A DNA stretch of 64,000 nt, taken from positions 5,189 to 69,188 of the forward strand of contig JBBTWD010000002.1 of the NCBI GenBank assembly GCA_038062915.1, read 5' to 3'. Source of the stretch: Patescibacteria group bacterium. GTDB lineage: Bacteria > Patescibacteriota > Microgenomatia > UBA8517. Under the pieces are notes generated by a model. That model was not told where the DNA came from and searched no databases. It worked only from the letters and a program-made list of their open reading frames with translations. The position numbers were made by a program, and so were the translations under genes. Positions 3,705-57,011 of the stretch are shown here, piece by piece. Each line of letters opens with the position of its first letter. Positions within the stretch are counted from its first letter, which is position 1.

Positions 3705-3717
3705 TTATCTAGTTTAT

Positions 3718-7910: not shown

Positions 7911-7913
7911 AAA

Positions 7914-11060: not shown

Positions 11061-11061
11061 T

Positions 11062-13666: not shown

Positions 13667-13686
13667 TCCGTGTACTAGTACACGGA
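13667..13686 (+). terminator. Perfect 20-bp palindrome tccgtgtactagtacacgga followed by TTTTT; intrinsic terminator and/or second operator copy
   Basis: Read directly from the sequence; it overlaps the stop codon of the convergent GT4 C-half ORF. Confidence 0.45.
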
Positions 13687-36224: not shown

Positions 36225-36544
36225 TCTTTCTTTAAAATCTGAAACAGTATGATTACAACCAATGTTCCAAAACCAGTACTTGCCGCCATTACAGCCATGT
36301 CGCGTAATTGAAAAATTTCTAATATTGAGGATGATATATAAAAAATCCCTACAGTTAAAAACCAAAAAAACAATTTAATTTTTGGATATTTATATATAAT
36401 AAAAATTAAAACCGTGAATAAACCTGCCTGTATTACTGGCCACAACGGATTAGTCAAAAAACCACTATTTAAAAACCAAAAGAAAGCAAAAACAAATAAA
36501 AGTAAGGCTATAGATTTTATATATTTTAGTATTTTCTTAATCAT
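36221..36544 (-). CDS. Small membrane protein (3 TM helices)
   Basis: ORF between two GT-C-like genes; hydrophobic. Confidence 0.35.
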   Translation of the reverse strand: MIKKILKYIKSIALLLFVFAFFWFLNSGFLTNPLWPVIQAGLFTVLIFIIYKYPKIKLFFWFLTVGIFYISSSILEIFQLRDMAVMAASTGFGTLVVIILFQILKKD

Positions 36545-40737: not shown

Positions 40738-42250
40738 TTTTGTAAGCTACCATGTAGTAATTAGCCAGCGGTTGAATAAAATAGGTTAGCCAATTAACGA
40801 GGAGTATAAGTGAATAAATTAACTTTTTCCATACACCATTTTGGTATCTGTCTATTAATCCCCCAATACCTTCAATCTCGCTTCTACCCATTTTTATTAC
40901 TTTGTATCCCCTAGCTATCAACTCATCTGGCATAAATCCTGATTTATGTAGTTGAAGGCGATTACCATCAACAGCTGGGTGAAATGTCCTTCCAATTGGC
41001 ATAGATATAATAACTTGCTTTTTAGCTATCTTTTCTAAATTGTCTAGAACCCTTAAAGATTCATCTTTTCTTATGTGTTCTAAAACCTGCAGGGCAATAA
41101 CAATATCAAAAGACTTATTCTCAAACGGCAAATTCCTGACATCAGCTAGTGAATATGAATCATGTATTCCCTTTCTTCTACATTCATTGATATAGGGTTT
41201 AAAAAGATCAACTCCATGGACAAACTTAAATTTTATTTTTTCTTTTAAAACCTGCATTGGAAGTCCACCCCCGCAAGCTACATCTAAAATGGTTTTACCC
41301 GATGTATCAATAACCCTACAAACCGGGTCAACCAATGAAATCAAGAAAAGTTTTAATGGGAAAAAAGAATAATCGATTCCGGAAATAATTCCCTTCCAAT
41401 AATTAGACAAAACATCAAATCTTGCAGTCATTAAAATAATTAAAGAATGTAAAACGATGTAAATTGGCTCGTAAAAAAACATAAAGACTAGAAAGTTGTT
41501 TTTTTGTGCATGTTTTTTCATAAATATGATCTTATTTTTACTTACTCTAAATGATCTCTCGGGAGTTGTTATCCCCAACCATTGAAGCCAGGGGTTAATA
41601 AATGTTTTTTTAGCTCCCGTATGCCAAGCGCGAGATTTCGGAACATAAAATATTTTATACCCAGCTTTTCTAGCTCTTATGGAGAAGTCAGAATCTTCAT
41701 AGGGAATAAAGATTTCCTCATCGTAGTCTCCAATTTTATCAAACACATCCCGCCTTACCAACCAAGTACATCCGGCCATTGGAATTTCGATTACTTTCTC
41801 AAACTGACCTACATCTTTTTGGTGAACTCCAATGCCAAAAACTCTGCCGGTTTTAAGGTTAATGCCATGTCCAACTCCTTGAATAATATCTGGCTTTCCC
41901 ATTTCATAAATTTTAGGTTGGACTATTCCAATTTTAGAGTCAGTTGTTATAACTTTAATAAGTTCTTTAACCATCTGTCTGTCTGCAACAGCATCGTCAT
42001 CCATGAATAAAACAAATTGACCTTTAGTATGGAGTAGCCCTAAATTTCTTCCTCCCGCACCCCCCAGATTTGTTTCACTTCTAATAACATTAATGCTTGA
42101 GGTTTTCTTGACTCGTTGGCTTGAGGCATTGTCGACAACAACAATTTCATCAATTTTCTGTGACTGAGCTAATATTGATTTAAGACATAGTGAAAGTTCC
42201 TTGTTGCGGTTTCTTGTTACAATTACTACTGATATGGAAGGCTTGTTCAT
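40721..42250 (-). CDS. Bifunctional GT2 glycosyltransferase - SAM methyltransferase fusion
   Basis: N-terminal SVVIVTRNRNKELSLCL...IVVVDNASS...FMDDDAV; C-terminal ILDVACGGGLPM...FDIVIALQVLEHI...QVIISMPIG...HPAVDGN. Confidence 0.75.
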   Translation of the reverse strand: MNKPSISVVIVTRNRNKELSLCLKSILAQSQKIDEIVVVDNASSQRVKKTSSINVIRSETNLGGAGGRNLGLLHTKGQFVLFMDDDAVADRQMVKELIKVITTDSKIGIVQPKIYEMGKPDIIQGVGHGINLKTGRVFGIGVHQKDVGQFEKVIEIPMAGCTWLVRRDVFDKIGDYDEEIFIPYEDSDFSIRARKAGYKIFYVPKSRAWHTGAKKTFINPWLQWLGITTPERSFRVSKNKIIFMKKHAQKNNFLVFMFFYEPIYIVLHSLIILMTARFDVLSNYWKGIISGIDYSFFPLKLFLISLVDPVCRVIDTSGKTILDVACGGGLPMQVLKEKIKFKFVHGVDLFKPYINECRRKGIHDSYSLADVRNLPFENKSFDIVIALQVLEHIRKDESLRVLDNLEKIAKKQVIISMPIGRTFHPAVDGNRLQLHKSGFMPDELIARGYKVIKMGRSEIEGIGGLIDRYQNGVWKKLIYSLILLVNWLTYFIQPLANYYMVAYKNVKNI

Positions 42251-42267
42251 CTCGAAGGTATTATAAA

Positions 42268-43308
42268 CTACCAGCGTTTACTTGCCAAAAAAGTTTTAAA
42301 ACCTTGAAGTGTTTGCCCCTTTATTAGAAATGGTATAAACGCTTGACTGTCCGAAAGCTTTCTTTTCCCCTGAACAGATGACCTTTTGTTCATAAGTATG
42401 GAAAAATTCAGGATAGCCCAGACAATCGCCTTAAACCTGGCCAAACCAAATCTCCAAAGGCCTTTGTAAAATATTTCAAATAATCCGGAAGCGATATAAA
42501 TTAAAAAAATCACGGGTATTGACTTAATTGCATTCACGAAATTGTAATTTTTAATTACAGTAGAAATTCTATTTTTATTAAACCAGAATTTTATTTCAGC
42601 CTTTAATTTAGCGCTCACTCTCGATGTTGAAGACCCTCGCTTATGATAAACAATAGCTTCTGGGAAACAGTAAATCTTATAGCCAAGAAGTCGCAACCTC
42701 AAGGATAAATCCATATCTTCATAACCAATTCGATAATCGGGGTCAAGAATCCCAACTTCAGGAATAAGACTGGCTCTAAAAAGAGACGTAGATCCAGTAA
42801 CTGATAAAACCTCCCTCAACTTGTTATATTGCCCCATGTCTTCTTCCCCCCCACCCAAGGTTACGGGGTTACCAAATATATCCATCGACTCTCCAACACT
42901 ATCAATTTTTTTGTGGTCAAAATATGAAAGAACCTTTCCTTGAATTTGACCAGCTTCGGGGTGGCTGTCCATAAAATTTACCAATTTCTCAATTGCACCT
43001 TTTGCAAAATATATATCGTTATTCAAAAAGAAAATATATTTCCCACTGGATTTTTTAATTGCCATGTTAATACCTTTGGTCATATTATTTACCGGGTTTT
43101 GTATTATTTGAAGCCTTTTATCATGGCCAAAATGCTTTCTAACCTCTCTAACACTATCATCAGAGGAAACCATATCAACAAAAAAAATTTCAAAATCCTT
43201 AAAACTTCCATTTAAGAAATCCTTGAAGAAGTCACCCAAAAGTCCCAATTCCCAACCATTATAATTAGTTACAATCGCACTGACTAAGGGTGATTTTTTG
43301 TTTACCAT
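42268..43308 (-). CDS. GT2 family glycosyltransferase with C-terminal TM segment
   Basis: VSAIVTNYNG...FVDMVSSDDS...FFLNNDIY; paralog of the GT2 domain in 40721..42250. Confidence 0.8.
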   Translation of the reverse strand: MVNKKSPLVSAIVTNYNGWELGLLGDFFKDFLNGSFKDFEIFFVDMVSSDDSVREVRKHFGHDKRLQIIQNPVNNMTKGINMAIKKSSGKYIFFLNNDIYFAKGAIEKLVNFMDSHPEAGQIQGKVLSYFDHKKIDSVGESMDIFGNPVTLGGGEEDMGQYNKLREVLSVTGSTSLFRASLIPEVGILDPDYRIGYEDMDLSLRLRLLGYKIYCFPEAIVYHKRGSSTSRVSAKLKAEIKFWFNKNRISTVIKNYNFVNAIKSIPVIFLIYIASGLFEIFYKGLWRFGLARFKAIVWAILNFSILMNKRSSVQGKRKLSDSQAFIPFLIKGQTLQGFKTFLASKRW

Positions 43309-43365: not shown

Positions 43366-44640
43366 GTGGTTATGAAAAATTTAAAGGTGCCAGGTAAGGT
43401 AAGACCAATTACTTCTTGTCAGGCTTGTCAGAGTAAAAACTTATACAAATTTATTAATTTTGGTCCTATGCCAAAACCAAATATTTATATGACAAGGGAG
43501 GAAGCTCTGGAACAAGGTTTACAAACTTTCCAACTTGACGCAAGTCTTTGTACCGACTGTGGATTGGTCCAATTGGGCGAGATCGTGCCTTCAGAGGAAC
43601 TATTCGCCGAAAATTATGCCTACCGAACCCCAGAGGCTATGAGGCCCGATTTTAAAGAAAGTGCAGAAGAAACTGCTTCACTTGCTGGAATAAAAAAAGG
43701 GGCAAAAGTACTTGAGATTGGCAGTAATATTGGTATCTGCCTTGATGAATACAGGAAAATGGGCATGAAGGTTCTTGGAGTAGACCCCGCCACAATATAT
43801 GCAAAACAAGCCAACAAATCAGGAATTGAAACAATTATTGAACCATTTACTCCATCCCTTGCCGACAACATCGTCAGAGAAAAAGGAAAAATGGATGTTG
43901 TAACCGCGGCTAATGTTCTTCAACATATCCCCGATCTTGTTGGAACAATTGAAGGAATCAGAAAGGTATTGGCCCCCAATGGGGTATTTTCTTTGGAATT
44001 CCCATACTTGGGAGATATATTAAATAATACCGACTTCGATACCTTCTATGCAGAACACTATTACTACCTTTCCCTAGCTCCACTCCAGAAAATATTCGAG
44101 TCGATGGGAATGACGATGGTTCATGCAAAAAAACTACCTCAAATCCATAATGGTTCCATGAGAATTTTTGTAAAACATGGCCGTGGATCAACAAATATGA
44201 GTAGAGACCTCTGGTTAATGATAAAGGATGAAGAAGACTCCGGATTTCTTAACCCAAAAAAGTTTTCAGATTTTAAGTCCCGAGTAGATAACATAGTTCA
44301 TCAAATAAACATGCATTTGTATGTTGCCAAAGCTAGAGGTGAACATGTGGTGGCCCATGGATGTTCTGCAAAGTTTGTAACACTTACCAACTATATGCAT
44401 ATTGGGGAAGATGTTATTTCTTACGTAGCCGATAACACAGATGTAAAACAAGGTAAGGTGACTCCGGGTATGGGCATCCCTGTAGTTTCGGAGGAAAAAT
44501 TAATGAATGACGCACCAGATATTATTTTTAATGGAATCAGAAACTTCTATAATTACAATAAAGAAAAGTACGACAAAATAAAAAAGAAAAATCCAAAAAC
44601 CAAAATCCTCATGCCGATTCCAGAGGTTTACTATCTTTAA
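43366..44640 (+). CDS. NDP-hexose C-methyltransferase-like (zinc-ribbon + MTase + C-MT C-terminal domain; TylCIII family)
   Basis: CQAC...x33...CTDCGLVQL zinc ribbon; VLEIGSNIGI motif I; C-terminal domain present. Confidence 0.7.
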   Translation: MVMKNLKVPGKVRPITSCQACQSKNLYKFINFGPMPKPNIYMTREEALEQGLQTFQLDASLCTDCGLVQLGEIVPSEELFAENYAYRTPEAMRPDFKESAEETASLAGIKKGAKVLEIGSNIGICLDEYRKMGMKVLGVDPATIYAKQANKSGIETIIEPFTPSLADNIVREKGKMDVVTAANVLQHIPDLVGTIEGIRKVLAPNGVFSLEFPYLGDILNNTDFDTFYAEHYYYLSLAPLQKIFESMGMTMVHAKKLPQIHNGSMRIFVKHGRGSTNMSRDLWLMIKDEEDSGFLNPKKFSDFKSRVDNIVHQINMHLYVAKARGEHVVAHGCSAKFVTLTNYMHIGEDVISYVADNTDVKQGKVTPGMGIPVVSEEKLMNDAPDIIFNGIRNFYNYNKEKYDKIKKKNPKTKILMPIPEVYYL

Positions 44641-45553
44641 AATTATTACTGATGTAATCGGTGACCGCCTCTTTCCATGTAGGAAACTCCATATCTAATA
44701 GCTCTTCTGTCTTTTTGACCTTTAGGCCTCCATTGGGGTTATATGGAGATTTTTTACCTATTAACTTTTCATAATCTAGTATTGAACCGGGTTTTACTTC
44801 ATTGTCAATTTTTATTTGCTTAGCTAAAAATGTACCGATTTCGAAAGGCGTGGTAATTTCACGACAAGCTACATGGAACTTACCGACTAACTTATTTGAG
44901 ATAATATTTTTTAAAGCATCACCTAAAACCGATATGTAGGTGGGGCTAAACTTTTGATCATTAAAAAGTGGTCTGTCTTTTTTAATGCCTTCAATAAGTT
45001 TTAAAACATAATCTTTATTCATATCCCTACTGCCAAAAGGATAAGCGATTCTAACAATTGAAAATTTGTCGCAATATTTTTCTACTACTTCCTCTGCTTT
45101 TCTTTTAGTAAATCCGTACCAATCCACCGTCCCATCATTAACGAGTTTGTCGTACTCATCAAATGGGCCATTCCCGCCGTAAAAAACATTGTCTGTCGAT
45201 ATATAACTTAAATAGAGACCACCTTGTCTACAAACTTTTGCAACATTAGATGTTCCTTCAACATTCAATTTCCAAGCGAGACCATCTTTATTACCAATTT
45301 CAGCCAATGAACCCTTAACATCCGTGTAGGCGGCTAAATTTAAGACAACGTCTATCCCGCTTTGCCTAATAAAATTTTGGAGCGATTCGAAGTCTAAAAT
45401 GTCAACGTCGTTAGAAGAAACAAATAATAAATTCTGTGCAAGGTCCACGTATAATTCCTTGAGCCTGCTTCCTATAAAACCAGATCCACCCAAGACCAAT
45501 GTTTTAGGATATGGTAGGGTCGTCATATTTATAAATTGTAATCCTTGACACAA
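44609..45553 (-). CDS. RmlD-like NAD(P)H-dependent 4-ketosugar reductase (dTDP-4-dehydrorhamnose reductase family)
   Basis: LVLGGSGFIGS...YISTDNVFYG...YGFTKRKAEE; RmlD substrate-binding pattern. Confidence 0.7.
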   Translation of the reverse strand: MCQGLQFINMTTLPYPKTLVLGGSGFIGSRLKELYVDLAQNLLFVSSNDVDILDFESLQNFIRQSGIDVVLNLAAYTDVKGSLAEIGNKDGLAWKLNVEGTSNVAKVCRQGGLYLSYISTDNVFYGGNGPFDEYDKLVNDGTVDWYGFTKRKAEEVVEKYCDKFSIVRIAYPFGSRDMNKDYVLKLIEGIKKDRPLFNDQKFSPTYISVLGDALKNIISNKLVGKFHVACREITTPFEIGTFLAKQIKIDNEVKPGSILDYEKLIGKKSPYNPNGGLKVKKTEELLDMEFPTWKEAVTDYISNNFKDSKPLESA

Positions 45554-46161
45554 AAAAGACCACCACTAATTTTTGGGATAAAATAACTAACAGGTGTAAA
45601 TAAATAATATAATGCCTGCTTTATTCGAAGAAATTTATCTTCAAGAAGCAATGGGATTTTTAAACCAAGCCCATAAACACTATAACCAAACTTTTTAAAA
45701 TCAGAGACCTTCCATATTGATTTATGTTCATCTTCTTTTTCTCCATGGAGTGTGTCAAAAAAAAGATTTGGTGTAGAAACAATTGCCCTGCCCTTGCATA
45801 CCCTATCTATTTCTCTTAATAATATTAGTCCGTCTTTCTTTTTAAGGTGTTCTATAACCTCTGTACAAATCAGAAAATCAATACTTTTATCCTTAAATGG
45901 AAGTTTTGGTAAACCTGCATGAACAAGCTTGTCGTAAATATTGAAATGACGGCAAAAATCAAGACATGCAGTGTTAATATCCATCCCGATAAGTTTTGCC
46001 CCACTCCAATCCCTTGTGGCACGAATAAGCGATCCATTTAGTCCCCTTCCGCAACCGACATCAAGTATTGTCTTTCCAATGAGAATAGGCGTAAAGTAAG
46101 AAATAAATGGGTGTAAAAAAAGGGGGTGGGTTCCTCCGGGGGCATAATTAATCTTTAACAT
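45529..46161 (-). CDS. Class I SAM-dependent methyltransferase (third paralog of the small MTase family)
   Basis: ILDVGCGRGLNG...IDFLICTEVIEHL...AIVSTPN. Confidence 0.75.
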   Translation of the reverse strand: MLKINYAPGGTHPLFLHPFISYFTPILIGKTILDVGCGRGLNGSLIRATRDWSGAKLIGMDINTACLDFCRHFNIYDKLVHAGLPKLPFKDKSIDFLICTEVIEHLKKKDGLILLREIDRVCKGRAIVSTPNLFFDTLHGEKEDEHKSIWKVSDFKKFGYSVYGLGLKIPLLLEDKFLRIKQALYYLFTPVSYFIPKISGGLFCVKDYNL

Positions 46162-47353
46162 GTTCCAATACCTCCCTTGCTCGCAGGTCCCATGACCAAT
46201 TTTTGCTAATCATCTCTAACGCCTCTTTGCCAATCTTTTCTCTGATTTTATTATTAGATAGCAAATTTAAAATTTCCTTTGCAAATTCATCCAAATCTCC
46301 GATCTTTACTTTGACCATTCCTTTTGGATAATAGGAGGAATATGATTTAAGATCAAAGCCAATACAGGGTATGCCAAATGCCATAGCTTCAGCAGAAGCC
46401 ATACCACCACTATCATAAAGTGCGGGGTGAACTACAATTTTTGACTCTGAAAAAGTTTGATATTTTTTGTCCCCGTCAAAAACATAACCCAAGAGGTCAA
46501 TGTTATCCTCTAATTTTGCGTCTTTAATTTTTGATTTAACATTCTTCATTAATGGACCATCTCCGATCATTACCAGTTTGGCATTTTTATTTTTAACTAC
46601 AACCTTTTTCCAAATTTCTATAATCTCGACAACACCTTTTTGGGGATGGAACCTACCTTGAAAAACCGCATCATACACCTTGGGTAGATTTTTATTTATG
46701 AATTTCCAATTTTCAATCTTTTTTACGTCCACCGCACCAAGAACAACAATAGTTTTACCCTTTTTATCAAGCCCAGGGAACTCTTTTCTTTCTCCCTCGT
46801 TGTTAACTAAAACAAAATCTGAAAATTTGGAAATTATGGGTTTAATAGGAAACTGGCTTAACCAATAGAGAAGTGCTTTAAATCTATATTTCTCTTCTCT
46901 CGCTCCTTCGGCATATCCCCTAAAGGGGTTTGGGGCCGTCTGATACCAAGTTGCAACCCACTTAATATTTGGGTAACGAATTTTCAAAATAAAGCATGGT
47001 AAAGTGTCCATCCAAAAATCAGACGCGCTGTACAATATAGTCTCTTTTTTGTTTTGAAGTTTAATCGATAACCCAAGTCTAATTCCTTCTATAATTCTGG
47101 CAAAATAATTTACTACAAAACCTAGGTCACTCCATGGTTTCATTGAAGAAATTTTAAAAGCTATATTTTTACTTTTTAAATCTTGTCTTTTACACATTTG
47201 GTAACCTTCAGTCCAAAGATAAATATTAATTTTAGACTTTTTACTCCACCGTCTCGCAAATTCTATAAATATCCTGTCACTACCAGAAAGACCTACTCCA
47301 AGGGCCCCCAATGCGAAAATTTTTATATTTTGAGTTTTTATTGCCATGGCCAT
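46148..47353 (-). CDS. GT4 family glycosyltransferase
   Basis: Glycos_transf_1 C-domain with GGMASAEAMAFGIPCIGFD. Confidence 0.8.
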   Translation of the reverse strand: MAMAIKTQNIKIFALGALGVGLSGSDRIFIEFARRWSKKSKINIYLWTEGYQMCKRQDLKSKNIAFKISSMKPWSDLGFVVNYFARIIEGIRLGLSIKLQNKKETILYSASDFWMDTLPCFILKIRYPNIKWVATWYQTAPNPFRGYAEGAREEKYRFKALLYWLSQFPIKPIISKFSDFVLVNNEGERKEFPGLDKKGKTIVVLGAVDVKKIENWKFINKNLPKVYDAVFQGRFHPQKGVVEIIEIWKKVVVKNKNAKLVMIGDGPLMKNVKSKIKDAKLEDNIDLLGYVFDGDKKYQTFSESKIVVHPALYDSGGMASAEAMAFGIPCIGFDLKSYSSYYPKGMVKVKIGDLDEFAKEILNLLSNNKIREKIGKEALEMISKNWSWDLRAREVLEHVKD

Positions 47354-49239
47354 ATTTTAAAAATCAAGTCTACTCTATAACTCCCGGCCTTATCAATATC
47401 CCAAGCATTAGCATAGCCGTAAGCTACGAAATGGTCAAATATGACCTCCTTATTAATTCTTGCTATCCATAAAGGGCTGAATGAGTTCCTAAGTATTATT
47501 TTAAATGGTTTATTTGCATTGGTTACATTAACGACATAATGACCCGGACTAATTTTCTGATAATTGTTGGGGGTGTAATTTAAGTTTTTATAAATATCTA
47601 AAAATCCTATAGATTTTAAAAATTTAATTTGGCTATATTTCTTTAAATTTTCTTTTATTTCCGCGGACGAGCTAGCATTACTATATTTGGGATCAATCTC
47701 ATTATGCAAAATGAAATATTCTATATCCATTTCTGAAAGCAGGTTGTCAATATTTTTATTTTGGGTAAATGTATTATATAGAGACATATATTTATCATCA
47801 GCAAGATTATAGCGAACAGTTTTTGAAACTACTGGATCTGAAAACAATATATCACTAGGCTCAAGGCCGTAATATGAAGTTTCTCCCCAATCATACTTGA
47901 CACCCTCCCCTGGAATCATTGGCAAGGATAATATCCGCCCAGTAATACCCAGGGCTTTGACATAATCATCAGCGACTTTGTAATCATTTGGAACCCTAAC
48001 CGATGCGGCTGGAGAGAAAGGCCCTTGTCCCCACATTGGCCAAACCAAAACTATAAGAGTAAGGGGGATAAAAAATCCAACCAATATAAATTTCCAAATG
48101 TGCGTCGCTTTCTGATATATAAATCCAAAACCGTAAGCAAAAAATAAACTATAAACCATAAGCCATACCGTTCCAAACTTTTCATATGAACTTCTAAAAG
48201 CTCTAGCAAACGAAACGTTCTCAAATAAAAATCCAAATAAAGCGTTTCCAAGTGGCGGATTTGTTCCCTTACAAATAAAAAGTCCAATAATTGCCAAGGT
48301 CATTAAGTATTTATATTCTTTTAAAATCCTAGCTTTGACAAAACCGAAAATAGTGATTGCTAAAATTGCAAAACTAACAAAATAAGATAAACTTCCTTTA
48401 TAAAAGTTGCCCCAATAATTTAAGCGCTCAAAAAAGAATTTGTGCCTAAGAAGTAATACATCACTTATTTTTGAATCCACACTCACCCCACCCAAACTCG
48501 CCAAATCATATTTCCAATCATGAATGTTTGAAATTACAGTAGATTGCAATTTAAAGTATGGATAAATCCACCAAATGTTAAATAAAGTCCAAATAAAAAT
48601 TCCTAAAACAATCCTTGGTATATAAGTTTTTTTGAAACGAAATATTGAAAATAACAATGAGACTGACCAAAAAGATATTATAAAGGCAGGATGTGAATAT
48701 GCCGAAGAAAACAGAACTGAAAAAATGCCAAACAAAAATAGATGTTTACATTTTCCCTCACTAAACCATTTAATCCATAAAAACAAAAGTAGAGGCAGTG
48801 AGGCCCAAGCGAAAAAACCAGCAAATACAAACCTGGCCCAAACCTGTGACTGCGTGTATAAGTTTAGTATGTAAAATAAACCAGCAAGTAAAGATATAGT
48901 TTTTCGATTTTCACCGAAAAAATATTTAGCCAAAAAATACATTCCAATTCCAGCGCTTGATGTTAGTACCCAAAATAAGATAGCTTGAATAGTTGAAGGA
49001 TTAAAAAAATAACTTAGTAAATAAGTAAAAAAGTAAACGGGAATTCTAGGTAACCAAAAAGGGCTTGGGTAACCCAGGCCCATATCAATCCAACTAGATC
49101 CATATGTAGAAGCCATCTTAATCGAATTCCAGGTAGATAAACTTTCTTCTCCACCTGCGAAAAAGTTTCCATTTCTAAACCAAGAGAAAATAACTATCGA
49201 AGAAATAAAAAGTAAAACAAAAATATATTTTTTATTCAT
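47338..49239 (-). CDS. Large polytopic membrane protein, GT-C-like (633 aa)
   Basis: IVIFSWFRNGNFFAGGEESL...TIQAILFWVLTSSAGIGMYFLAKYFF and the loop VPNDYKVADDYVKALGITGRILSLPMIPGEG parallel the 1177-aa protein. Confidence 0.45.
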   Translation of the reverse strand: MNKKYIFVLLFISSIVIFSWFRNGNFFAGGEESLSTWNSIKMASTYGSSWIDMGLGYPSPFWLPRIPVYFFTYLLSYFFNPSTIQAILFWVLTSSAGIGMYFLAKYFFGENRKTISLLAGLFYILNLYTQSQVWARFVFAGFFAWASLPLLLFLWIKWFSEGKCKHLFLFGIFSVLFSSAYSHPAFIISFWSVSLLFSIFRFKKTYIPRIVLGIFIWTLFNIWWIYPYFKLQSTVISNIHDWKYDLASLGGVSVDSKISDVLLLRHKFFFERLNYWGNFYKGSLSYFVSFAILAITIFGFVKARILKEYKYLMTLAIIGLFICKGTNPPLGNALFGFLFENVSFARAFRSSYEKFGTVWLMVYSLFFAYGFGFIYQKATHIWKFILVGFFIPLTLIVLVWPMWGQGPFSPAASVRVPNDYKVADDYVKALGITGRILSLPMIPGEGVKYDWGETSYYGLEPSDILFSDPVVSKTVRYNLADDKYMSLYNTFTQNKNIDNLLSEMDIEYFILHNEIDPKYSNASSSAEIKENLKKYSQIKFLKSIGFLDIYKNLNYTPNNYQKISPGHYVVNVTNANKPFKIILRNSFSPLWIARINKEVIFDHFVAYGYANAWDIDKAGSYRVDLIFKIWPWQ

Positions 49240-49242
49240 TCT

Positions 49243-50268
49243 CTAAAAAAGATTTTTAAGCGAATCCGACATCATTCTCCTTCCGGTTTTATTGTTAATA
49301 AAACTCCAAAGAAGTGTGTCTGTTACGGCTATTGTAATAATTGGTTCAGTGAGAAGCACCCAATCCCTATGCTTTAAAAAACGAATAAACCCACGAATTA
49401 ACGCTGGAAAAAATAAATTTGCATAAACTACAAATAACATCAATCGAAAAACTTCCCATTTATTCTTAGTGTTTAAAATTGTGTAATGATATTTTCCATA
49501 GGCTGGGAAAAAATGCATTCCCAAATTTCGCGTTCTTTTTTGAAGTAAATGTTTAAAGTTCTTAACGTGATAATGATAATAGCCAGCATCCGGGACATAG
49601 CCAAAATAAGGGTACCCGGATCTAACACAATTAATTAAAAAATCATGATCAAAATAATTTTTAGTAGTCCAATTTGGCGTTTTCTTTAAATATTTTATAC
49701 GATAAAACATACGAGCTGCCGGCGGAATTTTTTTATCTTCGAACTTACAGACTATATAATCGTTTTTCTTTTCTATAAAAGACTTTTCCACTTTCAAAAA
49801 AAGAAATTCCAAAAGTGGATCACACTGCGAATAATGATAAGAAAGATATCTACAGACCCAATGCATATCACTTTTTGGATACTCTTTTGTAAAAGTTGCC
49901 ACCAATCTAGAATCGTCTAAAAGTGGTTTAATCATTTCTTTAATGAAGTTTTTATTTCTTAAAACAATATCCTGTTCTAGATAAAACACAAATTCACCTT
50001 TTACTTTATGCAGGCCCTTAACCCAATTTGAATATAAATTACCTTCTGGATGAAGTAGAACACCAACATCATATTTTTTTGCAATTTTGACACTTTCATC
50101 TTGAGAGCCATTATCGACAACGACTACATCAATAAGGTTTTTAGGGTAATCTAATTTTTTAACAGACTCCAGGCATTTGCCTACACCACTCCCCCCATTA
50201 AATGTCAGAAGAATAAAGGATACTTTCGGCCATTTAGTTTGTTTTTGCATATTTAATAAAATTATCAA
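49243..50268 (-). CDS. GT2 family glycosyltransferase
   Basis: VSFILLTFNGGSGVGKCLESV...VVVVDNGSQDES. Confidence 0.8.
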   Translation of the reverse strand: MIILLNMQKQTKWPKVSFILLTFNGGSGVGKCLESVKKLDYPKNLIDVVVVDNGSQDESVKIAKKYDVGVLLHPEGNLYSNWVKGLHKVKGEFVFYLEQDIVLRNKNFIKEMIKPLLDDSRLVATFTKEYPKSDMHWVCRYLSYHYSQCDPLLEFLFLKVEKSFIEKKNDYIVCKFEDKKIPPAARMFYRIKYLKKTPNWTTKNYFDHDFLINCVRSGYPYFGYVPDAGYYHYHVKNFKHLLQKRTRNLGMHFFPAYGKYHYTILNTKNKWEVFRLMLFVVYANLFFPALIRGFIRFLKHRDWVLLTEPIITIAVTDTLLWSFINNKTGRRMMSDSLKNLF

Positions 50269-51166
50269 CTACATCACGCCAACTTCCAAACTTTATTCCC
50301 AACCTTTTTTGGGTTTCCCCAATTTTTAGGCCACCATATTTTGGATAACGATTTGAATTTTGCATAAGATACCCATCAATACTGGTTCTTTCTACCACCC
50401 CGCTTTTAGAACGAGATTTTAAAATTAAATACTCTGCCATTTTAAAGGGAGTTGTTAAGTCGCGACTTGCGGCATGGAAAATCCCACTAATTTTCTTTTC
50501 CAACAATTTTTCAATTACCAAAGTAATTTCCGGGATGTAAGATAATGTAATAAACTGATCTTCAAAAAGCGGATAAAGCTTATTTCTATCATATAGCCAC
50601 AACACCTTCCCCACGTAATCTAGTTTGGGATCATATACCGGCCTAACTACGTTACCAATTCTAACAACACAGCTGTTTGGGTTGTCCTTTAGAACAATTT
50701 TCTCTGCTAGGTTCTTGGTCCAACCGTACCAGGACAGACTTTTCATATTTGATTCAGTTAAATCATTTTCTGAATATGGACCTTTTTTGGGTCCTTCGCC
50801 ACTAAAAACATAATCTGTAGATATATGTATTAGACGAATCTTTGAAGATTTACAAATTTTAACAATATTCTTTATTCCAATTACGTTTGTAACCCATGCA
50901 CTCCCTTTTTTATCCCCCCGTTGTTCTTCAGCTGTATTTGCGTTTCTGTGGGCTGCAAAATTTATAATTACCTCTGGCTTATTTACTTCGACATACCTTT
51001 TTAGGGCCATAAAATCTGCAACATCAAGATCATTGTGAGGTGGGCACAATAAATCAATCATTTTTTTATCTCTTATAAGTTTATCTACAAACGCAGATCC
51101 AACAAGCCCCGTGGCCCCCGTAATTAATACTGTTTGCCTTTTCATATGCTTTTGTCTAATATTCAC
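50234..51166 (-). CDS. RmlD-like 4-ketosugar reductase (second paralog)
   Basis: VLITGATGLVGS...HISTDYVFSGEG...YGWTKNLAE. Confidence 0.7.
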   Translation of the reverse strand: MNIRQKHMKRQTVLITGATGLVGSAFVDKLIRDKKMIDLLCPPHNDLDVADFMALKRYVEVNKPEVIINFAAHRNANTAEEQRGDKKGSAWVTNVIGIKNIVKICKSSKIRLIHISTDYVFSGEGPKKGPYSENDLTESNMKSLSWYGWTKNLAEKIVLKDNPNSCVVRIGNVVRPVYDPKLDYVGKVLWLYDRNKLYPLFEDQFITLSYIPEITLVIEKLLEKKISGIFHAASRDLTTPFKMAEYLILKSRSKSGVVERTSIDGYLMQNSNRYPKYGGLKIGETQKRLGIKFGSWRDVVDNFIKYAKTN

Positions 51167-51182
51167 ATATTATAGAGGAAAT

Positions 51183-52355
51183 ATGAAAATTAAAAACAAA
51201 GAAAAAACAATTATTTATGTAAACTTTGCGCCATACGAAAATGCCGGTGGAATATTAGATTTCCTAAAAAAGAAATTTAAATATGTAGCACTTTTTTCAT
51301 TTAGTTTTCATCGTCTAAACAAGAGGCTGGAAAATAACAAATTGAAAGTTTATTTTTCAGGAAAAAAAGTAGATTCAAAAAATTTGTTTGATTTCCAAGT
51401 CCCTGAAAAACTAATATTCCTTTTTTTACCTATCCGTTCTATTCTTATTTTCCTTCAGATAATTTTTTACACTATCTATCTAACCTATACATATGGAGGA
51501 TTCGAAAACTATTTTACAGTCAACGCTTTTACTGCATGGACAGGAAATATTCTTAAGAAAACAGGTTTTGTTAAAAAAACTATTTTCTGGGTTTATGACT
51601 ACTATCCCCCGTTTCATGAAAATAAAACCATTGTTTTTATGCGGTGGCTTTATTGGCAGTTCGATAAATGGGCAACCAAATCAGACATGTTGGTCTTTTT
51701 AAATAGTCGGATTGTAAAACTTAGAAAAGAGATTGGAGTACTTAGTGATAGGGATAGGTATAAAATAATTCCGATAGGAACAACCAATAAATCAAAAAGG
51801 GGGTCAAGAAATTTGAAACCAAACTCAAAAATTAAATTAGTTTTTTTAGGCGTAATGAAAAAGAGTCAAGGTCTTAATCTCATTTTCGAATGTTCAAATC
51901 AAATCGCCACAACTTTTCCTAATTTAGAAATTAATATTATCGGAGACGGCCCGGATTTAGAATATTTTAAAAGTAATGGCGAAAAAACGAATCTCAAAAT
52001 AAAATATCATGGATATCCATCAGATAATGATATCGATGAAATACTGGGCAAAAGCCATATTGGAATTGCTACATATATCCCGAACCAAGAGAACGTTTCC
52101 TATTACGGCGATCCATCGAAAATTAAAGGGTATTTAAGCTTTGGTCTACCCGTGATAACAACAAACGTCTTTGAATTTTCTAAAGAAATAAAAAGTTTCA
52201 ATGCTGGAGTACTAATTGGTTATAAAAAAGAAAATATGATTAAAGCAATTACTAAAATTGTTAATAATTATAGCTTTTATAGGTCGGGTGCTAAAAAACT
52301 GGCTAAAAAATACTATTATAAAAATCTCTACCCCAATATGTTTAAACCCTACTAG
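51183..52355 (+). CDS. GT4/GT-B family glycosyltransferase
   Basis: C-domain NIIGDGPDLEYF...SFGLPVITTNV. Start set at MKIKNKEK (51183); the longer ORF from 51111 would overlap the divergent rmlD-like gene. Confidence 0.6.
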   Translation: MKIKNKEKTIIYVNFAPYENAGGILDFLKKKFKYVALFSFSFHRLNKRLENNKLKVYFSGKKVDSKNLFDFQVPEKLIFLFLPIRSILIFLQIIFYTIYLTYTYGGFENYFTVNAFTAWTGNILKKTGFVKKTIFWVYDYYPPFHENKTIVFMRWLYWQFDKWATKSDMLVFLNSRIVKLRKEIGVLSDRDRYKIIPIGTTNKSKRGSRNLKPNSKIKLVFLGVMKKSQGLNLIFECSNQIATTFPNLEINIIGDGPDLEYFKSNGEKTNLKIKYHGYPSDNDIDEILGKSHIGIATYIPNQENVSYYGDPSKIKGYLSFGLPVITTNVFEFSKEIKSFNAGVLIGYKKENMIKAITKIVNNYSFYRSGAKKLAKKYYYKNLYPNMFKPY

Positions 52356-53448
52356 TGTAGCTCGAAATTATTGCCTCAATATTTTTGTCACCATATCTTT
52401 TAATAACAAACTTTCGAGTATTTTTAGATAATTCTTTAAGTTTATCAGGTTTATTGTAAAAGTATTCGATAGCCCTTTTAATATTTATTGGAGTTACATC
52501 AATTAATTTACCAACAGTTTCATCTATCACACCTGGGATTGCTCCCCTATTTGAAGCAATAATAGGTGTACCACAAGCCAACGCTTCAAGAATAACCCTG
52601 CCAAATCCTTCGTCATGAGTAGAGGGAACTATAACTATATCTGCGCCGGAATAATAAATGGATAAATCGTCTTGAGAAATTTTACCAATATAATATTTTT
52701 GCACTTTTGATTCTAACGGGCCAGAACCTGCAATTTTAAGTTTAATACCTTTACTTAATAATTTAGCTGCGGAAAGAAGTTCTGATATTCCCTTTTCGGG
52801 AACTAAACGGCCGACAAAAAGAACTATAAATTGTTTTCCCCACCCAAGTTTTTTCTTAGATTCACCTTTATCAAGAGGTTTAAATTTTTTAAGATTTACC
52901 CAACTTACAAAAATACTGATTTTATTTTTATCTTTAACTATTTTTTTTATCTCACCCATTGATTGATGTGATAAGCAAAGAATATGATCAGTTTTGTTTA
53001 AGACCCAATTAATAAATTTAGAATAAAACCCCGACTTTGGAAAATTATATATATTATGTGTGGAGATTACAGTTCTTATACCAAATATTTTTCCCCAAAT
53101 TACAGCTGTGGTTCCTGCTACTAAACCATGTGCGTGAATTACATCTGGCCGATCAAATAAAATTATGAGTGAACTTACAACAAATATGCCTGGAAAAAGA
53201 TATAAGAATTCTAATATTGGCTTATCTACAAATGTATAAAATAATCCAGGCAACCAGGGAATTCGTAAAATTTTCAGACGTTTATGCCTCTCTAATACAC
53301 TTGATGCAATCTTGGTTTGTAGTGCCTTGTAGGCAAGAACAAAAACTTTATGCTTTTTATCTACCAAACCCAAAACAAGATCATTGATATGAGTTTCCAC
53401 TCCACCAATATTCGGACTAAAATGTGGGCTAATTTGTAGTATCTTCAT
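52342..53448 (-). CDS. GT4 family glycosyltransferase
   Basis: HDEGFGRVILEALACGTPIIASNRGAIPGV. Confidence 0.85.
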   Translation of the reverse strand: MKILQISPHFSPNIGGVETHINDLVLGLVDKKHKVFVLAYKALQTKIASSVLERHKRLKILRIPWLPGLFYTFVDKPILEFLYLFPGIFVVSSLIILFDRPDVIHAHGLVAGTTAVIWGKIFGIRTVISTHNIYNFPKSGFYSKFINWVLNKTDHILCLSHQSMGEIKKIVKDKNKISIFVSWVNLKKFKPLDKGESKKKLGWGKQFIVLFVGRLVPEKGISELLSAAKLLSKGIKLKIAGSGPLESKVQKYYIGKISQDDLSIYYSGADIVIVPSTHDEGFGRVILEALACGTPIIASNRGAIPGVIDETVGKLIDVTPINIKRAIEYFYNKPDKLKELSKNTRKFVIKRYGDKNIEAIISSYTSRV

Positions 53449-53468
53449 GATATTCTAACAAGCTTTGC

Positions 53469-54305
53469 TTATTTTTTGAAATATTTACCAACAATATACC
53501 CAATTCCCCCACCCAAAAGTTCAAAAGAAAACATTATAAACATTCCCATGCCCAAAACCGGATGAAAAATAACTTTTTTCCAATTCTTATAAAATACAGG
53601 TCTAAAAAAATATATCGTTTTGGGAGAAAATGGAGAAATGTTTTGTTTTTTTAAATATTTGTGAGCATTAACGGCATAATAATATTTTTTTCTTATTAAA
53701 CTTGCTAAACCCAGTATTTGTTCATTGTGAATTATTTCTGATTTAATTCTTCCAATTTTATATCCCCGTTTTTTTATTGATTCAGCCAAATCCCAATCTT
53801 CGGGGCCTATAATTGCTTCATCAAAACCACCAACTTTTTCAAAAACTGCTCGATTAAAAAATCTTGCCGCATCTGTAATTTGATCTCCAGCGGAATTATA
53901 AAACGATCTCTCGTAAGCTTTAATCTTTTCCCAAAAAGTTTTACCGACTGATTTTTCAGGTATTACAATTCCCCCTATCTTTTTATCTATTTTTATCTCT
54001 TTAACGCAATCTGCAATTACATTGGTTGTTAATTCCATATCGGAGTCAAGAAAAAGAAGAAATTCTCCTTTTGCTTTATTTGCGCCAAAATTTCGCTGGG
54101 TACTTCTTTCCAAATGTTTTCTTGTGTAAACACCTGGGGAATATTTTTTAGCGACTTTTAGCGTATCATCGGTTGAAGCGTCGTCTATAACAATAGTTTC
54201 TATTTTTTTATATTTTTGTTTTGAAATTGAAATTAATAGTTTTTTTATTAAATCGGGGCGATTGTATACCGGGATTATTACAGAAACTAAGGATTTATTT
54301 TTCAT
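53469..54305 (-). CDS. GT2 family glycosyltransferase
   Basis: VSVIIPVYNRPDLIKKLL...IVIDDASTDDT...LFLDSDM. Confidence 0.85.
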   Translation of the reverse strand: MKNKSLVSVIIPVYNRPDLIKKLLISISKQKYKKIETIVIDDASTDDTLKVAKKYSPGVYTRKHLERSTQRNFGANKAKGEFLLFLDSDMELTTNVIADCVKEIKIDKKIGGIVIPEKSVGKTFWEKIKAYERSFYNSAGDQITDAARFFNRAVFEKVGGFDEAIIGPEDWDLAESIKKRGYKIGRIKSEIIHNEQILGLASLIRKKYYYAVNAHKYLKKQNISPFSPKTIYFFRPVFYKNWKKVIFHPVLGMGMFIMFSFELLGGGIGYIVGKYFKK

Positions 54306-54309
54306 ATTT

Positions 54310-55245
54310 TCATTTATTAGCTAAGTACCAATCAATTGTTTTATTAAGTCCCGTTTCAAATGACATCTTTGATTCAAAACCAAACTCACGCCTTGCACGA
54401 GTTGTGTCTAACTTTCGTCTGGGCTGGCCATCAGGTTTTGTTTTATCCCAAACAATCTTACCTTTAAATCCAATTAGCCTTTTTATGGTTTTTGCCAAGT
54501 CTTTGACCGAAATTTCAAAACCAGCCCCTAAATTTACAGGCTCTGATTTATTATATTTTTCTGTTGCAAGTAAAATTCCATTAACAACATCGTCTATAAA
54601 TAAAAATTCTCGAGTTGCTTCTCCAGTCCCCCAAACTACAACTTCCTTCTTATTATTTTCTTTGGCTTCTAAAAATTTACGTATTAATGCGGGTATGACG
54701 TGAGAAGAGGCTAAATCAAAATTTTCCCCAGGACCATATAAATTTACAGGTAAAAGAAAAATGGCATTAAATCCATATTGTTGCCTATAGGTCTGGGCTT
54801 GAACCAACTGCATTAATTTAGCAAGACCATAGGGTGCATTGGTTTCTTCTGGATAGCCCTGCCACAAACTTTCCTCTTTAAAGGGAATCTGTGTAAATTT
54901 GGGATACGAACAAATCGTACCTATCGCTACAAACTTTTTAACACCAGCTAAACGCGCGGCTTTCATCATATTTACACCCATTAAAATATTGTCTTCAAAC
55001 AAATCCGCGGGAAATTCCCTATTAAATCCGATTCCTCCAACTTTGGCGGCTAAATGTATAACAATATCTTGATTTTTACAGACCTTTAGGCATGTTTTAA
55101 AATTCCTAAGATCATTTTTTGAATTTTTGGTAACTGAAATATCAACACCCTCAATATCCTTCAATTTTAATACCAAATGTTTCCCAACAAATCCGGATGC
55201 GCCAGTCACAAGTACCTTTTTGTTTCTCCAGAAACCTTTATTCAT
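54310..55245 (-). CDS. fcl: GDP-L-fucose synthase (GDP-4-keto-6-deoxymannose 3,5-epimerase/4-reductase)
   Basis: Matches E. coli Fcl blocks: LAAKVGGI..N..FPADF, VNLYGPGENFDLASSHVIPALIRKF, VVWGTGEATREFLFIDD, KPDGQPRRKLDTTRA. Confidence 0.8.
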   Translation of the reverse strand: MNKGFWRNKKVLVTGASGFVGKHLVLKLKDIEGVDISVTKNSKNDLRNFKTCLKVCKNQDIVIHLAAKVGGIGFNREFPADLFEDNILMGVNMMKAARLAGVKKFVAIGTICSYPKFTQIPFKEESLWQGYPEETNAPYGLAKLMQLVQAQTYRQQYGFNAIFLLPVNLYGPGENFDLASSHVIPALIRKFLEAKENNKKEVVVWGTGEATREFLFIDDVVNGILLATEKYNKSEPVNLGAGFEISVKDLAKTIKRLIGFKGKIVWDKTKPDGQPRRKLDTTRARREFGFESKMSFETGLNKTIDWYLANK

Positions 55246-57011
55246 TTTTGTTTAATAATACTTTTTCGTATTTCTTGAGTTATATCTAATAAATCTCCGT
55301 TTTTAGTAAACTTGAAAGCAAAAACTTGATTTAAGCTAATTTTTTCTTGAGGATAACCAAGACGTAAAAAGGCTTTACCGTCTGTGACTGTTGAAACTAC
55401 TTCAGTGTAAATATTTGTAAATGTCGGTATTAGACTTGCATCTTTAATTTTATACTCCAAAGCCATTCGAGGGGGGAAGCCAAAAAGAATGGTGTTGTTT
55501 GCAAGGCCTGGATTTTCCTTGTCATCAAAATAAAAGACAAGCAATTTATTTGGATATTCCCTTGGTAAATATCTAAATAGTTTACTCCACATTAAGTCAG
55601 TTACCGCTACGTTCCTCGTAGCGTAGAGGTTGTTCATATATTTTCTATCGTTTTTAATGTTAAAAGTGAGCATCGTTAATAAAATAACTGTTGTTAAAAA
55701 AGCAACTCTTATATTGATTTTTGAGGCGATTACAAGAAGTGAGGAAAGTGTTATTGCTACCCCTGCCAAACTTAATGTTAAATATCGGCCATCAGAACCC
55801 ATAATCGCTCCGGGATTAAAAACTAATGGTACGATAAATGATGTGAGTATAAGAATTGGCCCAGAAGCCATGCCGACCCATTCAATGTTTTTTTTCTCTA
55901 ACTTTGATATAAAAAGGATATATATAGCCCAAATAAGAAAAGTGATAAAAAATATTCCGATAAAAGTATTTATTAAGATTAAATACATTCCTTGATCGTG
56001 TGGGAATTGCTTGAACACAAAAAAAGTAAGCGTAAAATTGGTAATCAAAATTAATAGTATAAAAAGATAGTTTTTTAGTTTTTGGATAGTTATGCTTGAA
56101 AATATAAAAAATATTATTGATTCAACGATGAGGCCAATTGCGATAAACCACTTATACCAATTAGCCCCAATAAGTAGCGTGATAGATCCAAGATTAGGAG
56201 TAAATAGATCCGGCAAAAAAGCTTTACCTAGATTGGTTATAAAGGCGCTAATAAAAGTGTAGTCCCCCGTCTGAAACATACGAGTAATTACCGTTAAGTT
56301 GATAATATTTGTTGCATGCACTTCGCCAAAAAAACCCATTCTATAAACTGCAAGTGCAGACAATGACAGACAAATCTGTCTAATCAATGTTGTTTTAAGG
56401 GTAGCCTGGGCTATCGCCACTGCAAAAATAAAATCAAAAAATAATACAAACGGTAAAAGACCGTGACTTCTAATTGGATTGACTGCCAAGCTTACTGCAA
56501 ATAAAACACAACCAATGGCAAACTTCCAATAAGTACCTTTGAAGGAACCTATCAGAAAAGTCAGAGAGATAAATAAAAACAAGGTTACCAAATAAACATT
56601 CATATGAAGTACATAGTTGGAGGATTCAATACCGCTATATCCAATTGCGATAAATAAACTTCCAATTAACGCAGCCGCCTTAGATTTGATAAATTTGGAT
56701 AAAAATATATATCCTGCAAATGCAGTCAATACCCTTAAGCCCATGGAAACAAGAAAGTATCCATAACTAGCATACTCAAAAAAATGTCGAATAATAATCA
56801 AGCAAAGATTCATCACTCCCCACGGTTGGGTATAACCGCTCAAGGAAAAGAAGGGAAACTGATTTCCAGGACCATAATGCTTATCAATTACATAAAACAT
56901 GAACCAATCGTCACCAAAAAGTGAAAATTGGAGCGATTTACCAAAAGCAATGTAAATTAATAACGAAAATAATAATGTAACTGATAAATAGATAAACAAT
57001 TTAATCTTCAT
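55242..57011 (-). CDS. Polytopic membrane protein, GT-C-like glycosyltransferase
   Basis: About 13 TM helices; DDW in the first loop; about 130-aa C-terminal soluble domain. Confidence 0.4.
   Translation of the reverse strand: MKIKLFIYLSVTLLFSLLIYIAFGKSLQFSLFGDDWFMFYVIDKHYGPGNQFPFFSLSGYTQPWGVMNLCLIIIRHFFEYASYGYFLVSMGLRVLTAFAGYIFLSKFIKSKAAALIGSLFIAIGYSGIESSNYVLHMNVYLVTLFLFISLTFLIGSFKGTYWKFAIGCVLFAVSLAVNPIRSHGLLPFVLFFDFIFAVAIAQATLKTTLIRQICLSLSALAVYRMGFFGEVHATNIINLTVITRMFQTGDYTFISAFITNLGKAFLPDLFTPNLGSITLLIGANWYKWFIAIGLIVESIIFFIFSSITIQKLKNYLFILLILITNFTLTFFVFKQFPHDQGMYLILINTFIGIFFITFLIWAIYILFISKLEKKNIEWVGMASGPILILTSFIVPLVFNPGAIMGSDGRYLTLSLAGVAITLSSLLVIASKINIRVAFLTTVILLTMLTFNIKNDRKYMNNLYATRNVAVTDLMWSKLFRYLPREYPNKLLVFYFDDKENPGLANNTILFGFPPRMALEYKIKDASLIPTFTNIYTEVVSTVTDGKAFLRLGYPQEKISLNQVFAFKFTKNGDLLDITQEIRKSIIKQK

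Follow-up and report, generated by a model that had tools for sequence, protein, structure and literature searches.

A predicted sugar C-methylation module in a surface-glycan locus of a groundwater Patescibacteria genome

A stretch of 64,000 nucleotides from a Patescibacteria group bacterium (assembly GCA_038062915.1, contig JBBTWD010000002.1), referred to here as the window, carries a large surface-glycan locus in which a gene for a nucleoside diphosphate (NDP)-hexose C-methyltransferase of the TylC3/TcaB9/MtmC type lies on the plus strand (43372..44640, 422 amino acids). Convergent with it is the gene for RmlD-like 1, an NAD(P)H-dependent 4-ketoreductase of the RmlD family (44609..45526, minus strand, 305 amino acids); the two genes share 32 bp at their 3′ ends. 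The conserved unit consists only of these two genes. We consider it probable that they form part of a tailoring module of this strain-variable locus, in which an NDP-4-keto-6-deoxyhexose made elsewhere would be converted to a C-methyl 6-deoxyhexose, and that the two other 4-keto-sugar enzymes of the region, an Fcl-type protein and RmlD-like 2, would serve separate branches.

A previous reading of the DNA letters, made without database searches (the sequence-only reading), had drawn attention to five genes: the C-methyltransferase, the two RmlD-like reductases, Fcl and ManC. All five are present and intact, and comparisons with Pfam, NCBIfam and the PDB, together with inspection of key residues, bear out their identities. 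Only the start of the C-methyltransferase gene has been moved, from GTG 43366 to ATG 43372, because the only product on record is 422 amino acids long.

The C-methyltransferase and its close clade

The C-methyltransferase is composed of an N-terminal zinc ribbon (Methyltransf_13, 52.6 bits), a class I S-adenosylmethionine (SAM) domain (Methyltransf_23) and a C-terminal Methyltransf_14 domain (105 bits), all above the Pfam gathering cut-offs, and its translation contains the motif CxxC...CxxCGLVQL. The top PDB matches, over about 380 residues, are MtmC (4rv9, 5.6e-55), TcaB9 (3ndi, 3.7e-54) and KijD1 (5t64, 1.4e-52), which are structurally characterised deoxythymidine diphosphate (dTDP)-sugar 3-C-methyltransferases for D-mycarose in Streptomyces argillaceus, D-tetronitrose in Micromonospora chalcea and kijanose, respectively. 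In a 28-sequence alignment, the zinc cysteines C16, C19, C60 and C63 are invariant and aligned with those of TcaB9 and MtmC. Also invariant are Y82, H185, Y226 and H229, and E228 is at least 90% conserved; in the order Y82, H185, Y226, H229, E228 these residues match Y76, H181, Y222, H225 and E224 of TcaB9. Mutant chains in the PDB mark Tyr76, Tyr222 and Glu224 of TcaB9 (4e31, Tyr to Phe; 4e2x, Tyr to Phe; 4e2y, Glu to Gln), where the window protein has Tyr, Tyr and Glu, and the histidines placed by alignment with His181 and His225 we take to be active-site residues as well.

Similarity to TcaB9, MtmC and KijD1 therefore extends to the three domains, the four-cysteine zinc site, the SAM motif and the catalytic Tyr/His/Tyr/Glu/His set, within a full-length alignment (E of about 1e-54), although the window protein is distant from them (about 190 bits over about 380 residues), falls in a separate clade and is encoded in a surface-glycan locus, not in an antibiotic cluster. 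Because the three-domain architecture, the four zinc cysteines, the five TcaB9 catalytic residues and the top PDB matches coincide, the protein is assigned as a sugar C-methyltransferase and not a generic one. It is, by every sequence criterion, a bona fide member of that group and does not cluster with non-sugar methyltransferases, in agreement with the family proposed in the sequence-only reading. It is a new, lineage-specific member of an already known enzyme family.

A homologue search places the protein in a tight clade (P0001-P0029; 58-100% identity), all of whose members are metagenomic, followed by a gap to sequences of at most 38% identity. This clade has been found only in Patescibacteria metagenomes and on two phage contigs. 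Retention of all zinc ligands and catalytic residues across it indicates purifying selection for the canonical chemistry. A metagenome scan gave eight loci, and nine contexts of the clade were examined, two of which (L099 and L101) are on shorter contigs. Most of the cellular relatives have a convergent, tail-to-tail RmlD-like partner: L099 (C-methyltransferase 86% identical to that of the window), L009/L010 (71%), L011 (69%), L102/L103 (69%) and L012 (64%). An RmlC-family epimerase gene is located directly beside the reductase gene in L099, and in L009 an Fcl orthologue is divergently adjacent to the C-methyltransferase gene. The remaining cellular loci, L101 (73%) and L008 (68%), have no RmlD-like gene and keep an upstream block of GT2, GT2-methyltransferase and methyltransferase genes, which in L008 also includes an AftD-like gene. 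On the phage contigs, an RmlC-like gene lies directly upstream of the C-methyltransferase gene in L094 (58%), and small methyltransferases accompany it in L095/L096 (61%), along with RGP-family and uridine diphosphate (UDP)-glucose dehydrogenase-family genes. The RmlC-type gene beside the reductase in L099 and upstream in phage L094 is what a 4-keto-6-deoxyhexose substrate would predict.

The partners are far less uniform than the enzyme that they accompany. RmlD-like 1 is 34-40% identical to its counterparts in the relatives (about 39% to those of L099, L009, L011 and L102, which are 58-75% identical to each other), despite C-methyltransferases that are 64-86% identical to that of the window. 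Change, whether by sequence evolution or by exchange, is much faster in the reductase partner than in the C-methyltransferase.

The closest of these relatives, L099 (OBEQ010883090.1, 3052-12396), has a different reductase allele and the added RmlC-like epimerase, so that a hypervariable sugar-tailoring region is seen between otherwise syntenic loci. The slot filled by RmlD-like 2 in the window is occupied there by a GFO/IDH/MocA oxidoreductase, a histidine phosphatase and a second, distant C-methyltransferase (31% identity).

Reductases, Fcl, ManC and the search for a dehydratase

RmlD-like 1 (RmlD_sub_bind, 5.8e-41) and RmlD-like 2 (50234..51145, minus strand, 303 amino acids; RmlD_sub_bind, 1e-42) both display the RmlD_sub_bind fold, with a conserved GxxGxxG motif and Thr/Tyr/Lys triad (Thr104/Tyr128/Lys132). 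They are 31% identical to each other, and each is 24-26% identical to Escherichia coli RfbD. By sequence, both are RmlD-family 4-ketoreductases, but they should not be named RmlD or dTDP-4-dehydrorhamnose reductase.

The Fcl-like protein (54310..55245, minus strand, 311 amino acids) finds its best NCBIfam match in the GDP-L-fucose synthase family NF047922 (2.4e-89 over residues 8-310, full length; GDP, guanosine diphosphate), and its PDB matches are the GDP-L-fucose synthases 7ll6 and 1bws (1e-68 to 1e-63; best 2e-68). Compared with E. coli Fcl, to which it is 36% identical, S107 is replaced by T, and C109, Y136, K140 and H179 are conserved, which together represent the triad of the short-chain dehydrogenases/reductases (SDRs) and the Cys109/His179 epimerisation pair. 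Identity rises to 56-61% with Fcl genes whose neighbors are Gmd or ManC, in loci of Methanoregula (L091) and Coriobacteriia (L062), and to 81% with the gene adjoining the C-methyltransferase in L009. By sequence, the protein looks like an orthodox GDP-4-keto-6-deoxy-D-mannose 3,5-epimerase/4-reductase. The E. coli colanic-acid gmd-fcl and rfbBDAC systems share with the window the Fcl and RfbD relatives and their catalytic residues, but no gmd or rfbB/A/C is adjacent here and the scores fall below the equivalog cut-offs. As candidate dehydratases, the RmlD-like and Fcl proteins were rejected, since they belong to reductase and epimerase-reductase families and their residues match those.

ManC (11062..12138, alternative upper coordinate 12204, minus strand; NTP_transferase plus ManC_GMP_beta-helix) is a mannose-1-phosphate guanylyltransferase without a PMI domain that matches TIGR01479 at 7e-86, is 34% identical to E. 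coli CpsB and adjoins a priming Bac_transf gene (10410-11060). The sequence-only reading had taken ManC and Fcl to imply a fucose route. ManC need not do so: it lies 42 kb from the C-methyltransferase gene and is equally explained as a source of GDP-mannose for the many GT4 enzymes and the polyprenyl-phosphate-mannose-dependent GT-C enzymes of the locus. Nor is there evidence that the five genes together constitute one pathway, as had been suggested, given that Fcl is adjacent to the C-methyltransferase only in L009 and that the slot of RmlD-like 2 is variable, as L099 illustrates. No Fcl gene lies within 10 kb of the C-methyltransferase gene in L008, L011, L012 or L102/L103, and the shorter contigs L099 and L101 show none.

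Pathway partners were sought by six-frame tblastn searches of about 78 kb, comprising the window, 5.7 kb downstream (L003, from a 14.7-kb sibling contig) and about 8 kb upstream (L004, the dcw/mur region). One query set contained E. coli K-12 Gmd, Fcl, RmlA-D, ManB and ManC; the other contained Gmd, RmlA, RmlB and RmlC from Patescibacteria, archaeal and phage loci. Both sets matched only the three SDR genes and ManC, and no Gmd, RmlA, RmlB, RmlC or ManB occurs in the region searched. The statement in the sequence-only reading that the window lacks a 4,6-dehydratase, Gmd and RmlA/B/C is thus upheld by both searches. Within the window and the flanks read, the RmlD-like genes are not partnered by rmlA, rmlB and rmlC, and Gmd is not co-encoded with the Fcl-like gene in the window, L003 or L004. 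Upstream on the same contig, in the dcw/mur cluster, a 632-residue protein (L004, 13997-15895) joins Mur ligase domains to an NTP_transferase/IspD-like domain; near the locus, no nucleotidyltransferase besides ManC and this fusion was seen.

A proposed route and its alternatives

In the route that we favor, 4-keto-6-deoxy precursors would be provided by a 4,6-dehydratase (Gmd and/or RmlA plus RmlB) encoded elsewhere in the genome. By analogy, the C-methyltransferase would deprotonate the carbon beside the 4-keto group of an NDP-4-keto-6-deoxyhexose and methylate it there, most likely at C3, after which RmlD-like 1 would presumably reduce the 4-keto group to yield an NDP-C-methyl-6-deoxyhexose. 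Neighboring GT2, GT4 or GT-C enzymes could then install the C-methyl sugar, which may also be modified by the several O-methyltransferases. The Fcl-type enzyme and RmlD-like 2 would act as separate 4-keto-sugar reductases, most simply in the formation of other 6-deoxyhexoses, such as L-fucose from GDP-4-keto-6-deoxymannose.

The C-methyltransferase repeatedly neighbors a 4-ketoreductase-type SDR and, in relatives, an RmlC-like epimerase, which makes a C-branched 6-deoxyhexose a reasonable product to predict. To this extent the product envisaged in the sequence-only reading stands, but its description as unusual does not. In a scan of GTDB species genomes, at least 595 stretches encode a relative of the C-methyltransferase (595 of the 600 pattern matches listed); members of the family are thus frequent in polysaccharide loci, and its cassettes occur across many phyla. 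Eighty distant relatives, with 30-37% identity, were examined. Among the matches listed, the usual distant cassette consists of an SDR, the C-methyltransferase and an RmlC-like gene, with an adjacent RmlC-like gene in 34 loci and an adjacent SDR in 44. This cassette is found in polysaccharide loci of Acidobacteriota, Planctomycetota, Proteobacteria, Chloroflexota, DPANN archaea and other Patescibacteria. The window resembles it in having the same enzyme family among glycosyltransferases, flanked by a reductase-type SDR. It departs from the widespread arrangement, whose C-methyltransferases are 30-37% identical to that of the window and whose SDR is Epimerase/RmlB-like and usually followed by the RmlC-like gene, in that the window partner is of the RmlD_sub_bind type and convergent.

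Mycarose-type cassettes offer another comparison. These include a C-methyltransferase (TylC3/EryBIII), a 5-epimerase (TylK/EryBVII) and a 4-ketoreductase (TylC2/EryBIV). The window has the first and third functions by homology, to which an RmlC-like epimerase is added in the relative L099 and in phage L094, but its cluster is without an epimerase, 2-deoxygenation genes, a dehydratase or a thymidylyltransferase.

Several observations weigh against the favored route. No 4,6-dehydratase, RmlA or RmlC is present in the approximately 78 kb of contig, and no dehydratase occurs within 10 kb of the C-methyltransferase in the nine close-clade contexts; precursor supply is therefore assumed. L008 and L101 have the C-methyltransferase with no adjacent reductase, and the low identity between partners that accompany much more similar C-methyltransferases means that partner orthology is loose. 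Equivalog scores are low throughout: TIGR01214 is the best NCBIfam match for both RmlD-like proteins, at 129 bits for RmlD-like 1 and 138 bits for RmlD-like 2, below the 224-bit cut-off, and the Fcl-like protein scores 300 bits against NF047922, below its cut-off of 500 bits. A layout with tailoring genes inside a glycan locus and the dehydratase outside it is common and fairly ordinary.

A second possibility, which we regard as tenable but rather unlikely, is a single GDP pathway of the kind proposed for virenose in Coxiella, with ManC, a distal Gmd, methylation at C3 and completion by Fcl and/or an RmlD-like reductase, such that all the flagged genes would be GDP-linked. ManC and Fcl, the only nucleotide-specific markers in the locus, are both GDP-type; the 81% identical Fcl orthologue of L009 divergently adjoins the C-methyltransferase gene; and a minority of the distant C-methyltransferases among the matches listed lie near Gmd, Fcl or ManC (L035, L037, L062, L088 and L091), with others near RmlA or RmlB. 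The precedent is the GDP-virenose route of Coxiella burnetii, proposed in silico, which comprises ManC, Gmd, the TylCIII-like CBU_0691 and GMER/Fcl (PMC3539893). Three of these four genes have counterparts in the window, where ManC, a TylCIII-like C-methyltransferase and an Fcl-type enzyme share one glycan locus. The likeness is incomplete, however: Gmd was not found in the window and its flanks, two extra RmlD-family reductases are present here, and the Coxiella route is itself an in silico proposal. In addition, ManC is distant from the C-methyltransferase and is also needed for mannosyl transfer, and among the close relatives examined Fcl adjoins the C-methyltransferase only in L009. The partners that are conserved come from the RmlD and RmlC families, typical of dTDP pathways. 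To our knowledge, every characterised member of the C-methyltransferase family uses dTDP-sugars. The Coxiella study likewise states that C-methyltransferase activity had been demonstrated only with TDP-sugars (PMC3539893), and literature searches for an assayed GDP-dependent C-methyltransferase or a deoxysugar pathway of Patescibacteria yielded this in silico study alone.

The tree of the C-methyltransferases does not favor the GDP pathway either, since neighboring genes indicative of GDP or of dTDP occur at scattered positions on it, and an attempt to read the carrier (GDP versus dTDP) from phylogeny and neighbor content failed for that reason. The RmlD- and RmlC-type partners point to dTDP just as the Fcl adjacency in L009 points to GDP.

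It is unlikely that only ordinary pathways operate here, with Fcl making GDP-L-fucose, the RmlD-like proteins acting as divergent dTDP-rhamnose or 6-deoxytalose reductases supplied by rmlABC elsewhere, and the C-methyltransferase being inactive or directed at something other than an NDP-sugar, so that no branched sugar would be formed. Dehydratase and epimerase genes are commonly located away from glycan loci, and this, along with the best matches of the RmlD-like proteins to TIGR01214 and of the Fcl-like protein to the Fcl equivalog, is what such a scheme would predict, as is the lack of a reductase beside the C-methyltransferase in L008 and L101. Conservation of every zinc ligand and catalytic residue throughout the 58-100% clade argues against it, as do the repeated, tight pairing of the C-methyltransferase with a ketoreductase, and sometimes an epimerase, and RmlD-like scores that are well below the RmlD equivalog cut-off.

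It is highly improbable that the genome truly has no 4,6-dehydratase and that the 4-keto substrate derives from another oxidoreductase, a non-6-deoxy 4-keto sugar (e.g., a UDP-4-keto-pentose) or a nucleotide sugar of the host. In favor of this reading, biosynthetic capacity is typically reduced in Patescibacteria, neither the window nor any of the nine clade contexts has a dehydratase near the C-methyltransferase, the phage contigs have UDP-glucose dehydrogenase-family and RGP-family genes near theirs, and the L099 locus has a GFO/IDH/MocA oxidoreductase. Against it, the search extended over just a portion of a single contig, Gmd or RmlA is encoded in other loci of Patescibacteria (L035 and L031), and the Fcl-, RmlD- and RmlC-type partners all belong to 4-keto-6-deoxyhexose chemistry.

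If the favored route is correct, the surface glycans of ultra-small groundwater Patescibacteria would hold C-methyl-branched and heavily O-methylated 6-deoxysugars; most known examples of such sugars come from antibiotics and from a few lipopolysaccharides, that of Coxiella among them. The practical value of the analysis lies in annotation, in that the two “RmlD” genes should not be called dTDP-4-dehydrorhamnose reductase and ManC plus Fcl alone do not establish a fucose pathway.

Phage relatives and the surrounding glycan locus

The most divergent C-methyltransferases of the close clade (58-61% identical to the window protein) are those of the two phage contigs, L094 (ENA BUCK21-1 scaffold_446, 8579-11712) and L095/L096 (NCBI GCA_043956535.1, JBINNZ010005705.1, 7935-13333). 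These contigs carry genes for terminase small and large subunits, a portal or adaptor protein and a major head protein, and their C-methyltransferase cassettes include GT2, an RmlC-like gene, several methyltransferases, and genes of the RGP and UDP-glucose dehydrogenase families. The phage subclade is sister to the Patescibacteria clade, and the GC content of the phage (35-37.5%) is similar to that of the cellular loci. PHROGs contains no family matching the phage C-methyltransferases, and a scan of IMG/VR for the subclade returned no close relative, only matches of 24-30% identity. One 72-kb viral contig (L097; IMGVR_UViG_3300024336_000009, 10001-12065) has a distant C-methyltransferase-like gene (24% identity) directly followed by Gmd; this Gmd shares 58% identity with one from Harrisonbacteria.

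Exchange of partners between near-identical loci, together with sister copies of the C-methyltransferase on phage contigs, suggests that the sugar is a surface trait that varies among strains and on which phages or hosts exert selection; the phage-borne sister subclade and the partner swapping are the most notable by-products of this analysis. A bolder proposal, to which we give little credence, is that the lineage and phages possibly infecting it share a private C-methyltransferase clade that puts C-methyl-branched deoxysugars on the cell surface or the virion, with partner swaps varying the stereochemistry. In its strongest form, such small genomes would lack any 4,6-dehydratase, and the 4-keto sugar would arise by an undescribed route or come from the host.

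The window has a GC content of 34%, and its product is recorded at NCBI under a “Patescibacteria group bacterium” metagenome-assembled genome. By exact-protein match, the window also lies in the same orientation at 17165-81164 of a 156-kb contig from the 0.1 µm fraction of Hainich groundwater (ENA ERZ1292632, Hain_H43_01um_R2_22_length_155998). Bases 1-8,400 encode housekeeping functions (MraW, MraZ, a class II tRNA synthetase, LytR, RecO and a ZIP transporter). A single glycan locus of more than 55 kb occupies the rest of the window, from about 8.4 kb (8459), and extends at least 5.7 kb past its end (L003, 1-5680). It contains about 25 GT2/GT4 genes, the priming Bac_transf gene, ManC, a DUF4012 protein, a Wzy_C protein and six SAM methyltransferases. 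Two Wzx-type flippases are also encoded (30834-32105 and 62481-63761).

Two minus-strand operons, defined by gene overlaps of 4-35 bp, contain the three SDR genes. The first runs from 58054 to 52342 and encodes a putative NanM-type sugar O-methyltransferase (57008..58054; TIGR04371, 3e-43, 148 bits against a 44-bit cut-off), a GT-C-like polytopic membrane protein of 589 amino acids with no Pfam match and ten transmembrane (TM)-like segments (55242..57011), Fcl, a GT2 glycosyltransferase (53469..54305; Glycos_transf_2, 2.5e-26) and a GT4 glycosyltransferase (52342..53448; Glycos_transf_1, 1e-32, plus Glyco_transf_4). A plus-strand gene for a GT4 glycosyltransferase of 390 amino acids follows (51183..52355; Glycos_transf_1, 7e-13). 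The second operon, from 51145 to 44609, begins with RmlD-like 2 and ends with RmlD-like 1. Between them are a GT2 glycosyltransferase of 335 amino acids (49243..50250; Glycos_transf_2, 3e-17), a 633-residue polytopic membrane protein, GT-C-like or polymerase-like, with no Pfam match and seven TM-like segments (47338..49239), a GT4 glycosyltransferase (46148..47353; Glycos_transf_1, 2e-27) and a small class I SAM methyltransferase of 210 amino acids that is probably a sugar O-methyltransferase (45529..46161; Methyltransf_11/25). The last three are syntenic in L099 and L101, with 67-73% identity for the membrane protein and 76-81% for the small methyltransferase.

The C-methyltransferase gene stands alone on the plus strand between this operon and a divergent minus-strand block (36537..43308) that encodes a GT2 glycosyltransferase (42268-43308), a GT2-methyltransferase fusion (40721-42250), a methyltransferase (40051-40737) and, by Pfam, an AftD-like GT-C protein with DUF5667 (36537-40070). 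This block recurs in L008 and, for its GT2, GT2-methyltransferase and methyltransferase part, in L101.

The locus is very large for a small genome and is rich in GT-C-type membrane enzymes, among them the AftD-like protein and PMT_2/GT39 and Mannosyl_trans2 proteins, the PMT_2 and Mannosyl_trans2 genes lying just downstream of the window. Several further proteins of 450-900 amino acids have no Pfam family and are polytopic, with 6-10 TM-like segments, and are therefore probably GT-C-like; at least six such genes occur, e.g., 32066-34777, 34779-36224, 47338-49239, 55242-57011 and 59995-61752. An AsnB-type glutamine amidotransferase (28175-29992) and a WcaF-like hexapeptide acetyltransferase (20844-21401) are also encoded inside the locus, which suggests that the glycan has amidated and O-acetylated residues besides many predicted methylations.

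Two adjacent GT4 genes (12092-13182 and 13675-14698) are each split into an N-domain and a C-domain open reading frame (ORF) in different frames with short overlaps (12628-13182/12092-12640 and 14180-14698/13675-14187), and the two C-domains are 29% identical. Frameshifted pseudogenes, assembly indels and a natural split of the glycosyltransferases are all conceivable explanations; an alternative genetic code was rejected as the cause, most ORFs in the window being long and intact. Just past the window end, the closest named relatives of a GT39 protein (P0121) are from Candidatus Woesebacteria, at about 53% identity, which hints that the organism belongs in or near Microgenomatia.

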